Origin: Escherichia phage ECO07P1
Length of the DNA: 64,000 nucleotides
Direction: 5' to 3' (one strand)
Sequence record: OP172784
The number at the start of each line of letters is the position of its first letter. Position 1 is the first letter of the stretch. The position numbers were made by a program, and so were the translations under genes. Under the pieces are notes generated by a model. That model searched no databases. It saw only the letters and a program-made list of their open reading frames with translations, and was not told the DNA's origin. Shown here piece by piece: positions 34,710 through 37,199 of this stretch.

Positions 34710-35198
34710 ATGAATATATTTGAAATGTTACGTATAGATGAAGGTCTTAGACTTAAAATCTATAAAGACACAGAAGGCTATTACACTATTGGCATCGGTC
34801 ATTTGCTTACAAAAAGTCCATCACTTAATGTTGCTAAATCTGAATTAGATAAAGCTATTGGGCGTAATTGCAATGGTGTAATTACAGAAGATGAGGCTGA
34901 AAAACTTTTTAATCAGGATGTTGATGCTGCTGTTCGCGGAATTCTGAGAAATGCTAAATTAAAACCGGTTTATGATTCTCTTGATGCTGTTCGCCGTTGT
35001 GCATTGATTAACATGGTCTTCCAAATGGGAGAAACCGGCGTAGCAGGATTTACTAATTCTCTGCGCATGCTCCAACAGAAGCGTTGGGATGAAGCAGCAG
35101 TAAATCTAGCCCAATCTAAATGGTATCGTCAGACACCTAATCGCGCGAAACGCGTAATCTCAACATTTAAAACAGGAACTTGGAAAGCGTATATATGA
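34710..35198 (+). CDS. e: endolysin (T4 lysozyme)
   Basis: [40 protein letters not shown], near-identical to T4 lysozyme; 162 aa. Confidence 0.95.
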
Positions 35199-35476
35199 AA
35201 ACATATAGTGAATTTTTATCAGAATCTATTCTTAACGAAGCTACTGACACATTTGCAACTAAGCTAGGTGCAGCTTTGGTTGAAGCTGAAAGTCTATTAG
35301 CACGTATTTCTGAACTTGCTAGTAAGATAGATACTCGCAAATTTGAACGTACCAGCGATATCGTTAAGCTTGAAGCCTTGTTGCGTATGTGCGATAAACC
35401 AGAAGAAATCGCTAAGAACGGCTCGCTAATGAAACAACGTCTTGAAAAATATATCTCAGGCGCTTCAGAAAAATAG
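35195..35476 (+). CDS. internal-protein-like protein with capsid targeting sequence
   Basis: [12 protein letters not shown]-terminus; ATGA overlap with e stop. Confidence 0.6.
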
Positions 35477-35477
35477 T

Positions 35478-35507
35478 GTTTACTTCCTCCAAGGACTTTG
35501 ATACTAT
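35478..35507 (+). promoter_or_regulatory. T4-type early promoter (denV)
   Basis: GTTTAC-N18-TACTAT. Confidence 0.6.
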
Positions 35508-35534
35508 ACATTCATCAACTACTTGGAGGAAATT

Positions 35535-35948
35535 ATGACTCGTATCAATTTAACACTTGTTTCTGAACTGACCGACCAACATCTTATGGCTGAGTATCGT
35601 GAATTACCACGCGTATTTGGTGCAGTCCGTAAACATGTTCAAAACGGTAAACGTGTAAAGGATTTTAAAATCTCTCCAACATTTATCTTAGGCACAGGTC
35701 ACGTAACATTCTTTTACGACAAACTCGAATTTTTACGTTTACGTCAAATCGAGCTAATCGCTGAATGCTTGAAACGTGGTTTCAAAATCAAGGACACGAC
35801 TGTCCAGGATATTTCCGACATCCCTGTCGAATTTCGTAATAATTATGTCCCGTCCGAAGCGTCCATTGCGATAAGTCAAGCTCGCTTAGATGAAAAAATT
35901 GCTCAACGCCCTACTTGGTACAAATACTATGGTAAATCAATTTACTAA
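35535..35948 (+). CDS. denV: endonuclease V, pyrimidine-dimer DNA glycosylase
   Basis: [35 protein letters not shown]..., near-identical to T4 DenV; early promoter upstream. Confidence 0.92.
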
Positions 35949-35954
35949 GGAAAA

Positions 35955-36213
35955 ATGAAAATGTATCAAGAATTTATCGCTGAAGCAGATGCCAAAGGCC
36001 CCAAATTTAAAGTTAAAGCTTTCGTTGGTGATGCGGAAGACTTTGGCTCATTAAAACGTAATGGGTATTTTTCCTAGGCGGCGATGGTAGAGAAATAAAC
36101 ACCTATGCAAAACGTAGTGAATTGCTTATGTTGCTGCAAGTCCTAAAGTAGATGTTGACGATATTGGATACGATTTTAACAACTTCGGAATTATTTCTGG
36201 CGGTGAAGCTTAA
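35955..36213 (+). pseudogene. decayed internal-protein gene remnant
   Basis: Starts MKMYQEFIAEADAKGP (CTS-like), stops after 40 codons; remaining sequence has short ORFs in other frames. Confidence 0.45.
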
Positions 36214-36216
36214 ACG

Positions 36217-36246
36217 GTTTACGCTTAAGTATTAATATGGTATAAT
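36217..36246 (+). promoter_or_regulatory. T4-type early promoter (ipIII-like)
   Basis: GTTTAC-N18-TATAAT. Confidence 0.6.
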
Positions 36247-36276
36247 TACTCTATCAAAACAAACAAGGAAACAAAA

Positions 36277-36855
36277 ATGAAAACGTATAAAGAATTTATT
36301 GCTGAAGCTTCTGTGGAAAAGGCCAAAGGCATTAATAAGGACGAGTGGAACTATCGTGGTGGAAACGGCTTTGACCCTAAAACTGCTCCACTTGAACGAT
36401 ATCTAGCCACAAAAGCTTCTGACTTTAAAGCTTTCGCTTGGGAAGGACTTCGCTGGCGTACCGATCTAAATATTGAAGTTGATGGGCTTAAATTTGGCCA
36501 TATTCAAGATGTTGTTGCTAGTAACTTGGATGCAGCTTTTGTTAAAGCTGACGGTGACCTTCGTCGCTGGAATTTAAAACTATTCTCTAAACAGAAAGGC
36601 CCGGTGTTTGTGCCTAAAGCTGGTAAATGGGTTATTGATAATAAATTAGCTAAGGCTGTCAACTACGCTGGTCTTGAATTCGCCAAGCACAAATCATCAT
36701 GGAAAGGTCTGGATGCAATGGCTTTCCGTAAAGAATTTGCTGATGTTATGGCTAAAGGCGGCTTTAAGGCAGAAATAGATACCTCTAAAGGTACGTTTAA
36801 GGACGCTAATGTTCAGTACGCTTATGCCGTTGCTAACGCAGCCCGTGGTAATTAA
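36277..36855 (+). CDS. ipIII: internal protein III-like
   Basis: 192 aa; MKTYKEFIAE-A CTS; length and N-terminus match T4 IPIII from memory. Confidence 0.7.
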   Translation: MKTYKEFIAEASVEKAKGINKDEWNYRGGNGFDPKTAPLERYLATKASDFKAFAWEGLRWRTDLNIEVDGLKFGHIQDVVASNLDAAFVKADGDLRRWNLKLFSKQKGPVFVPKAGKWVIDNKLAKAVNYAGLEFAKHKSSWKGLDAMAFRKEFADVMAKGGFKAEIDTSKGTFKDANVQYAYAVANAARGN

Positions 36856-36896
36856 TAAGGCCGATACTTAGGCTTATTTACATTTAAAGGAAACAT

Positions 36897-37199
36897 ATGA
36901 AAACATATCAAGAATTTATTACTGAAGCTCGAGTGAGTGCAGGTAAATTAGAATCCGCTATAAATAAAAAGGCCCATTCATTTCATGATTTGTCCGATAA
37001 AGACCGTAAGAAACTTATAAGCCTTTATATTGACAAAGAGCGTATTCTCGCTCTTCCTGGCGCTAATGAAGGTAAACAGGCCAAGCCTTTGAATGCTGTC
37101 GAAAAGAAAATTGATAACTTTGCTTCTAAATTCGGTATGTCTATGGATGACCTTCAGCAAGCGGCTATCGAAGCAGCTAAAGTAATTAAAGGTAAATAA
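36897..37199 (+). CDS. ipII: internal protein II-like
   Basis: 100 aa; MKTYQEFITE-A CTS; length matches T4 IPII. Confidence 0.65.
   Translation: MKTYQEFITEARVSAGKLESAINKKAHSFHDLSDKDRKKLISLYIDKERILALPGANEGKQAKPLNAVEKKIDNFASKFGMSMDDLQQAAIEAAKVIKGK

Follow-up and report, generated by a model that had tools for sequence, protein, structure and literature searches.

Internal proteins (IPs) of T4-like phages are injected before gene expression, and in the cases studied they counteract type IV restriction and first-line defences related to it; the IP set therefore helps to fix the host range of these phages. The CTS and the action of IPI* against GmrS/GmrD have been described (PMC3012670), IPIII is required for the infection of ECOR17 and acts in the cytoplasm (PMC9391042), fused GmrSD is inhibited by IpII, which T2 and T6 lack (bioRxiv 10.1101/2023.04.06.535777), and McrBC is inhibited by another CTS protein, from the ipI locus (bioRxiv 10.1101/2025.11.20.689424). 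Arbiol et al. (2010; PMC2839356) credit Repoila et al. (1994) with the description of two variable IP loci, which contain promoter/stem-loop elements, and Comeau et al. (2007) with more than 30 IP variants. [quoted passage not shown] The order of the locus in T4 (NC_000866; ipIII-ipII-denV at 64939-66415) is e, ipIII, ipII, denV and vs.8, and the corresponding interval of RB69 (NC_004928) reads e, RB69p127, denV, RB69p125, RB69p124, RB69p123 and vs.8.

In this study, we analysed the interval between e and vs.8 in a stretch of 64,000 nucleotides from Escherichia phage ECO07P1 (sequence record OP172784), referred to here as the window; it begins within gene 19, and the protease gene 21 lies outside it. 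The parts of the locus from e to the site after ipII are on the plus strand. The order in the window is e, a 93-aa CTS protein (IP-A), denV, a frameshifted CTS gene (IP-B), ipIII and ipII, and every feature that an initial annotation had described was recovered in its place. That annotation had given the T4 order (e, ipIII, ipII, denV) in agreement with NC_000866 and had regarded this neighbourhood as rearranged. The latter view is not supported: RB69 from e through IP-A and denV to IP-B, and phage SP1 over the entire order, match the window with IP-B intact, so that reference genomes carry an intact equivalent of 35955-36213 in the same order, which the annotation itself had named as counter-evidence. 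T-even phages have two known hypervariable IP loci, of which this interval is one; its layout is common and its kind is already known. We put the probability at roughly 0.85 that the window carries a common mosaic form of this locus, in which an RB69-type block and T4-type sequence were brought together by exchange.

The closest relatives resemble the window in different parts of the locus. RB69 shares e, IP-A, denV, IP-B and the next early promoter in the same order, with 94-100% nucleotide identity across 35195-36276 and with an IP-A gene that likewise overlaps the e stop codon; it differs in having two other CTS genes, p124 (equivalent to IP-C) and p123, in the place taken here by T4-type ipIII and ipII, in its intact IP-B and in its backbone genes nudE, e and vs.8, which are just 66-86% identical to those of the window. 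T4 shares orthologous ipIII and ipII, the CTS motif, the backbone genes, the direction of transcription and a denV cassette composed, as in the window, of an early promoter and a hairpin sequestering the Shine-Dalgarno region, but it has neither IP-A nor IP-B, and its denV is another allele (79% nucleotide identity) sited after ipII, in a cassette that the window does not possess. vB_EcoM_SP1 (MT682709) and similar Tequatrovirus isolates have exactly the order of the window; over this stretch SP1 is 97.3% identical in nucleotide sequence, with IP-A and denV 100% identical, and differs in its intact IP-B (84-86 aa) and in a CTS crossover at the start of ipIII that is shifted by a few nucleotides. 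W143 and phi25-307 show the matching order with IP-B intact and with IP-C added between IP-B and ipIII, and phi25-307 combines the parts the other way round, its backbone being that of a Mosigvirus and its ipIII and ipII being T4-type. No genome near-identical to the window was found in the phage database, where the best match was about 96%.

The mosaic is apparent in the nucleotide identities of successive genes. A block of approximately 1.2 kb (about 35100-36300) is of the RB69 type and comprises the last ~100 nt of e, IP-A, the promoter and hairpin of denV, denV itself, IP-B and the next promoter with its 5'UTR; it is set in a T4-type backbone of nudE, most of e, vs.8, vs.7 and vs.6. Identity to T4 and RB69, respectively, is 95% and 66% for nudE, 92% and 82% for e, 78.8% and 98.9% for denV, and 93% and 86% for vs.8; IP-A (96%) and IP-B (94%) have counterparts in the RB69 locus and none in that of T4, and ipIII (90%) and ipII (95%) have counterparts in T4 and none in RB69. 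Lysozyme gene e (34710-35198) was located by tblastn with 94% amino-acid identity to T4 e, and two late-promoter motifs, TATAAATA, lie upstream of it at 34676 and 34689. Within e, informative sites pass from the T4 type to the RB69 type between 35050 and 35102, and because the body of the gene is T4-type and its last ~100 nt, from about 35100, are RB69-type, the left crossover is placed inside e. At the start of ipIII, the first ~25 nt of the CTS-coding sequence are of the IP-C/RB69 type, and in the CTS alignment the IP-C-type TATAAAG is followed by the ipIII-type GCTGAAGCTTCT; since the remainder of the gene is T4-type, the right crossover and the junction of the IP-C deletion are placed at about 36289-36302. 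Relative to W143 and phi25-307, two CTS-coding repeats mark the exact ends of the IP-C deletion. Both junctions of the block thus fall in sequence common to the two parents, on the left at the 3' end of e and on the right in the ~35 nt that encode the CTS at the start of ipIII.

The denV gene (35535-35948) encodes endonuclease V, a pyrimidine-dimer glycosylase. It matches PF03013 (Pyr_excise; E = 3e-14, 53 bits with the cut-off at 23) and the endonuclease V family phrog_1183 (E = 2e-62), and its product is 99% identical to that of RB69 and 91% identical to that of T4. Thr2 and Glu23, whose catalytic roles are established for T4 endonuclease V, are seen in the translation by inspection. Compared with T4 alone, denV has disappeared from 37200-37203 and is present between e and ipIII, as would be seen if the gene had been transposed within the lineage from its T4 position after ipII into the IP cluster. 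The empty site also has exact ends: the window from 37203 onward aligns to T4 from 64938 onward, the base immediately after the T4 denV stop codon, and where T4 reads ...AAATAACA, then the cassette GTTTAC...denV...GCATAA, then GGGAAC, the window reads ...AAATAACATGGGAAC, so that the cassette missing from the window is exactly that from the -35 hexamer of T4 through the denV stop codon. The resident gene, however, is 98.9% identical to denV of RB69 and just 78.8% identical to that of T4, and it is accompanied by RB69-type IP-A, IP-B and promoters between flanks that are 91-97% T4-like. The same e-proximal position is occupied in RB69, VR20, F48 and JS10, and the e/IP-A/denV junction was found in 238 phage-database records (at least 80% coverage), against 72 for the T4-type ipII/denV junction; database records with the layout of the window thus outnumber those with the layout of T4 about threefold. 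The junction of ipII with vs.8 seen in the window occurs in 76 records, and the entire locus in 64, each at a coverage of at least 80%. Transposition of denV within the genome, which we regard as extremely improbable, was rejected on the identity of the allele, which is RB69-type and not T4-type: denV has not moved within the genome; the RB69-type allele arrived together with the IP genes on either side of it, and the T4-type cassette is missing from the T4 position.

Exchange of a block between genomes is related to, and also differs from, the PeSL model. As in that model, the two early promoters of the locus (35478 and 36217) adjoin stem-loops and flank accessory ORFs. The promoter of denV (35478-35507; GTTTAC-N17-TACTAT, T4-type, by pattern search) runs into a predicted hairpin at 35484-35531 (-18.5 kcal/mol, z = -2.8), in which the promoter spacer TTCCTCCAAG (35484-35493) pairs with the Shine-Dalgarno region CTTGGAGGAA (35522-35531). 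The T4 denV cassette has an equivalent 10-bp stem of different sequence, UCUCCUGUAG/CUACAGGAGA (z = -3.0). Such a hairpin would limit the translation of denV to transcripts from its own early promoter, and read-through transcripts from e would still be able to express the IP genes that flank it. Unlike the elements of the PeSL model, this stem-loop overlaps a ribosome-binding site and is no obvious terminator. The second promoter (36217-36246; GTTTAC-N17-TATAAT with a TG extension, T4-type, by pattern search) lies before ipIII and its stem-loop is weak (z = -1.2); together with the 5'UTR it is 100% identical to RB69 and W143, and in these phages and phi25-307 it precedes IP-C. No promoter was found between ipIII and ipII, the latter being preceded only by a weak hairpin with a T-rich tract (36858-36875; -6.7 kcal/mol, z = -1.9). 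The early-promoter pattern (GTTTAC-N17-TAnnnT) occurs 19 times in the window, where 2.8 occurrences would be expected, but only these two fall in the region, which does not bear out an early promoter for each gene as initially annotated. No Rfam family was detected in 30000-42000, and the GC-richer segment 37203-37342, considered as a structured RNA or intron fragment, was discarded as its fold was no better than that of shuffled sequence (z = 0.24).

The mappable junctions of the locus, furthermore, occupy coding repeats at the CTS and at the 3' end of e rather than promoter/stem-loop cassettes, on which the literature puts the emphasis; the absent T4 denV cassette alone begins exactly at its -35 hexamer. 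The exchanges would have proceeded by homologous recombination between co-infecting T4-like phages, with the repeated CTS-coding ends providing short patches of homology, and the promoter/stem-loop cassettes may have acted as such patches too. The RB69-type block may have entered a T4-type genome, or the reverse may have happened, since the identities alone do not fix the direction.

Each of the CTS genes in the locus carries a candidate processing site. In T4, the gp21 prohead protease cuts directly downstream of the CTS, at a consensus of (L/I)-x-E and then a small residue. By inspection, motifs of this type are IAE/A in IP-B and ipIII, ITE/A in ipII and LNE/A in IP-A, where it occupies residues 13-16 and is kept in RB69 and VR20 although the preceding residues vary. 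T4-type ipIII (36277-36855; 192 aa, 92% amino-acid identity to T4 IPIII, phrog_5341 with E = 3e-117) and ipII (36897-37199; 100 aa, 91% identity to T4 IPII, phrog_7857 with E = 1e-54) begin with MKTYKEFIAE and MKTYQEFITE, an N-terminal CTS resembling MKTYQEFIAE in both cases, and the CTS-coding repeats were also picked up as the direct-repeat families D1-D3. IP-A (35195-35476) is the equivalent of RB69p127 and of a VR20 gene annotated 'ip5', and is 100% identical in nucleotide sequence to its SP1 counterpart; its ATG overlaps the stop codon of e (ATGA), an instance of start/stop coupling. It matches phrog_3499, 'internal head protein' (E = 1e-46), and matches to PHROG internal head or virion proteins across the locus range from this value to 3e-117, with 8e-19 for the intact form of IP-B (phrog_2667, 'internal head protein'). 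A homologue search of 5.8 billion sequences returned only five protein clusters for IP-A, all from T4-like phages, and a Pfam scan of the protein gave no family. The AF2 model of IP-A is all-helical and of moderate confidence (pLDDT 73, pTM 0.35), and Foldseek gave no fold match in the PDB below E = 7. IP-A and IP-B are putative internal proteins assigned by annotation, and we infer the packaging, cleavage and injection of IP-A from its motif and family annotation. The products of IP-A, ipIII and ipII, each with an N-terminal CTS, would be loaded into the prohead core, trimmed by gp21 after (L/I)xE and delivered into the host along with the DNA, where they may disarm first-line host defences.

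The IP-B gene (35955-36213, delimited by alignment to intact alleles) is the equivalent of RB69p125. Its ORF, MKMYQEFIAEA..., starts 6 nt after the denV stop codon and runs for 40 codons to a premature TAG at 36075-36077; the lesions are two 1-nt deletions, one within the T-run at 36068-36072 or adjacent to it, the other of a single A at 36110-36111 (AAA to AA). The initial annotation called this stretch a decayed IP remnant that might align to an intact gene elsewhere. Intact genes of 84-86 aa, with an end equivalent to 36211-36213, are indeed carried by SP1, W143, phi25-307 and RB69, and the copy in the window is 94-97% identical to them in nucleotide sequence; the gene is disrupted as described, but 'decayed' is too strong a word for it, since apart from its two 1-nt deletions it matches intact alleles at 96-97% identity. 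Either IP-B became a pseudogene very recently or the sequence is in error here. Indels relative to T4 were dropped as a test for error, there being too much natural variation at 5% divergence, and were replaced by multi-genome alignments and a tblastn frame check. Homopolymer-length errors of sequencing or assembly, which would leave the gene intact in the real phage, are possible but doubtful as the source of the missing bases. Each lesion removes one base within or next to a short run, two more run-length changes private to the window lie nearby (+1 G at 37257 and +1 A at 38015, the latter breaking vs.7), and exact-pattern scans of IMG/VR gave no match to the window's version of either lesion. 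The large conserved genes (2-18, tk, regB, 55 and a-gt; more than 30 kb), by contrast, each gave a single full-length tblastn alignment free of frameshifts, and evenly spread errors would not bunch as these do, four within 2 kb of dispensable genes. Different IP-B lesions also occur in the independently sequenced SF2-1, Lutter, 236Ecol005PP and FL23/JM10/FL44, with the loss in the A-run common to SF2-1 and the window. If the lesions are real, IP-B would no longer be made in ECO07P1.

At least five independent lesions in a 260-nt gene (in the window, SF2-1, Lutter, 236Ecol005PP and the FL23 group), together with an abnormal length in about 7 of the 60 best-matching IP-B records, raise the question of whether the loss was selected and not neutral, the injected protein being sensed by, or harmful on, some hosts and hence lost repeatedly. 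We consider this unlikely: frameshifts are found too in vs.8 and vs.7 of T2, Lutter and the window, which fits general relaxed selection or sequencing error, and IP-B, present in 164-178 phage records, is intact in most of them. It is similarly improbable, though conceivable, that IP-B is repeatedly lost as a liability on some hosts, for example by triggering a defence system that recognises it on injection. Were this true, the locus would be a natural record of selection for and against single injected proteins.

Whatever the fate of IP-B, the gain, loss and shuffling of CTS genes that had been suggested for this locus are real, because 16 genomes give about 13 layouts from e to vs.8. In these genomes the interval contains from zero to six CTS ORFs, which lie on both sides of denV in 11 of the 16; T2 and T6 have no denV in the interval, and in FL23 most of the gene is deleted. 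The locus of ECO07P1 is thus a worked example of the editing of an IP set and nothing new in kind: a cassette exchange between Mosigvirus-type and Tequatrovirus-type phages with junctions in the CTS-coding repeat. The textbook order of T4 is the minority layout. IP-A and IP-B are reasonable candidates for anti-defence screens.

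In the interval between e and vs.8, the e ORF (34710–35198) is followed on the same + strand by IP-A (35195–35476; the RB69p127 equivalent), which encodes a 93-amino-acid protein with the N-terminal capsid-targeting sequence (CTS) of T-even internal proteins (IPs) and starts with an ATG overlapping the stop codon of e; denV (35535–35948), which matches Pfam PF03013 and PHROG endonuclease V; IP-B (from 35955; the RB69p125 equivalent), whose ORF, starting MKMYQEFIAEA, ends after 40 codons; ipIII (36277–36855; 192 residues, 92% amino-acid identity to T4); and ipII (36897–37199; 100 residues, 91%). 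The four CTS ORFs match PHROG internal head/virion protein families, IP-B having been queried through the intact copy of phage SP1, and by sequence similarity these gene identities are firm. The initial annotation was accurate in its observations: every ORF lies where it was placed, and the T4 order that it gave, e, ipIII, ipII, denV, vs.8, agrees with NC_000866. Its interpretation was right in spirit, but wrong on rearrangement, decay and promoters. The supposedly rearranged order occurs in reference genomes, with an intact gene at the position of 35955–36213, an outcome that the initial annotation had itself named as refuting it. RB69 (NC_004928), sequenced in 2003, has e, p127 (a 93-residue IP), denV, p125 (an 86-residue IP), two further CTS ORFs and vs.8; SP1 (MT682709) has an order identical to that of the window, but with the fourth gene, IP-B, intact; W143 and phi25-307 have the window order plus one or two additional CTS genes. 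In the phage database, the e/IP-A/denV junction is at least 80% covered in 238 records and the entire locus at least 80% covered in 64; the window-type ipII/vs.8 junction is covered in 76 records and the T4-type ipII/denV junction in 72. The gene order is not unusual, and the locus is a common mosaic of an already described kind.

By segment, nudE, most of e, vs.8, vs.7 and vs.6 are 91–97% identical to T4 and 66–94% to RB69; IP-A, the denV promoter with denV, IP-B and the next promoter/5′UTR share 94–100% identity with RB69; and ipIII (90%) and ipII (95%) are T4-type, both being missing from RB69. Informative sites change from T4-type to RB69-type inside e (~35050 to 35102). At the right edge the RB69 alignment reaches 36306 and that of T4 ipIII begins at 36265, which places the crossover within the shared ribosome-binding site/CTS-coding stretch. 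In the initial annotation denV appeared to sit inside the IP cluster. Taken alone, denV shares 98.9% identity with RB69 and 78.8% with T4, the T4 cassette (−35 GTTTAC through the stop codon) is missing at 37200–37203, and the window resumes at 37203 with the base directly after the T4 denV stop. Because the T4 cassette is absent and an RB69-type allele is present, a hop of denV within the genome is rejected; a different allele occupies the place that denV has in RB69, and its place in T4 is empty here.

The window comes from a T4-like coliphage (Tequatrovirus), and its + strand corresponds to the early (counter-clockwise) direction of T4. By tblastn, the proteins of T4 from gene 19 to a-gt are placed along it, mostly at 90–100% amino-acid identity; the closest genome reaches only ~96% over 15 kb, with none nearer among the 50,697 records of the phage collection. 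The T4 homing-endonuclease genes mobB, mobC, mobD, segB and segC have no match window-wide, nor do nrdC.4, 49.3, e.7 and trna.3. Also missing is the nrdD group I intron with I-TevII (junction 55914/55917, the alignment jumping over T4 44815–45849), and 55.1 shifts frame close to its C-terminus relative to T4. tk.4 (58% amino-acid identity), nrdC.3 (63%) and nrdG (80%) are far more diverged from T4 than adjoining genes, which suggests further imported patches; the coordinates given for the 55.1, tk.4, nrdC.3 and nrdG observations are ~60021, 40743–41207 and 52035–52955.

Rather than one per gene, as first proposed, the region has only two T4 early promoters, one ahead of denV and the other ahead of ipIII. 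Translation of IP-A is coupled to that of e, IP-B starts 6 nt after denV, a weak hairpin precedes ipII and two late-promoter motifs lie directly upstream of e. In a 10-bp stem at 35484–35531 (z = −2.8), the denV promoter spacer (5′ arm) pairs with the denV Shine–Dalgarno region; the T4 denV cassette (T4 65360–65405) has an equivalent stem of different sequence (z = −3.0). Through these differing stems, both alleles retain a predicted hairpin that sequesters the ribosome-binding site of denV. From this arrangement we infer that denV would be translated only from transcripts that its own promoter initiates, and that the flanking IP genes could still be served by read-through transcripts.

Compared with intact alleles, IP-B is missing one base in or next to the T-run 36068–36072 (TTTTTCC in the window, TTCTTTCC or TTTTTTCT in relatives) and one A at 36110–36111 (AAA in relatives). 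As it is otherwise 94–97% identical to them, the earlier description of a decayed remnant is too strong. Different lesions in this gene are present in SF2-1 (−1 at CCTATG, with the A-run loss in common with the window), Lutter (+1 T), 236Ecol005PP (−1 T) and FL23 (+2 A); the JM10 and FL44 matches have the same abnormal length as FL23, 265 nt, and among the 60 records that match best, about 7 have an abnormal length. A local sequencing error is the rival explanation. Run-length changes private to the window occur at 37257 (+G) and 38015 (+A), and tblastn finds no frameshift in its large conserved genes. The inactivation is probably real and recent (a probability of roughly 0.7). Also, vs.7 (37879–38209) is split by the extra A at ~38015 (A6, versus A5 in SP1, W143, T4 and T2), an apparent second pseudogene, or error, 2 kb from IP-B. 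The ~140 nt upstream of vs.8 (37203–37342) are conserved, being matched in 619 records, and make up the initial 40 codons of vs.8 in the T4 annotation. Their frame is not conserved (a stop in SP1, the extra G at 37257 in the window), the conserved start being MRTFLTG at 37343; the segment has no significant fold (z = 0.24) and no Rfam match.

Gain, loss and shuffling of IP genes, as initially proposed, are borne out by a survey of 16 genomes, in which the e–vs.8 interval holds 0 to 6 CTS ORFs in about 13 layouts. In 11 of the 16, denV lies between CTS ORFs; T4 alone has CTS genes and denV in the interval with every CTS gene upstream. In T2 the interval holds one unrelated 157-residue CTS gene and no denV; T6 lacks the whole interval, and its e adjoins regB; dhaeg has denV only, F48 has e, ipII, denV, ipIII, and in FL23 (1355–1504) denV is reduced to its last ~35 codons between IP-A and IP-B. 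The promoter 3′ of IP-B drives IP-C, an RB69p124-type CTS gene, in W143, phi25-307 and RB69, with ipIII after IP-C in the first two; in the window and SP1, ipIII directly follows that promoter and its 5′UTR. IP-C-type sequence gives way to ipIII-type sequence inside a ~35-nt CTS-coding repeat, between TATAAAG and GCTGAAGCTTCT in the window and a few bases upstream in SP1. Since this change falls within the repeat, IP-C would have been deleted when two CTS repeats recombined. These layouts agree with Arbiol et al. (2010; PMC2839356), who credit Repoila et al. (1994) with the two variable IP loci and cite Comeau et al. (2007) for more than 30 IP variants.

A second IP locus (27172–28207), between 57B and the tRNA region, has three CTS ORFs (27235–27510, 27571–27879 and 27950–28174) beginning MKTFKEFINEA or MKTCKKFIVEA, each preceded by a T4 early promoter of its own (27172, 27511 and 27892), with a fourth such promoter at 28178; T4 ipI has no match anywhere in the window.

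Several IPs act against host defences. IPI* blocks GmrS/GmrD (PMC3012670), IpII, which T2 and T6 lack, blocks fused GmrSD (bioRxiv 10.1101/2023.04.06.535777), IPIII, which acts in the cytoplasm, is required for infection of ECOR17 (PMC9391042), and another CTS protein, from the ipI locus, blocks McrBC (bioRxiv 10.1101/2025.11.20.689424). IP-A belongs to no Pfam family, its homologues form only five clusters, and its AF2 model, helical and of moderate confidence, has no fold match in the PDB. Its most likely role, by analogy with the IPs above, is that of a further injected protein acting against host defences.
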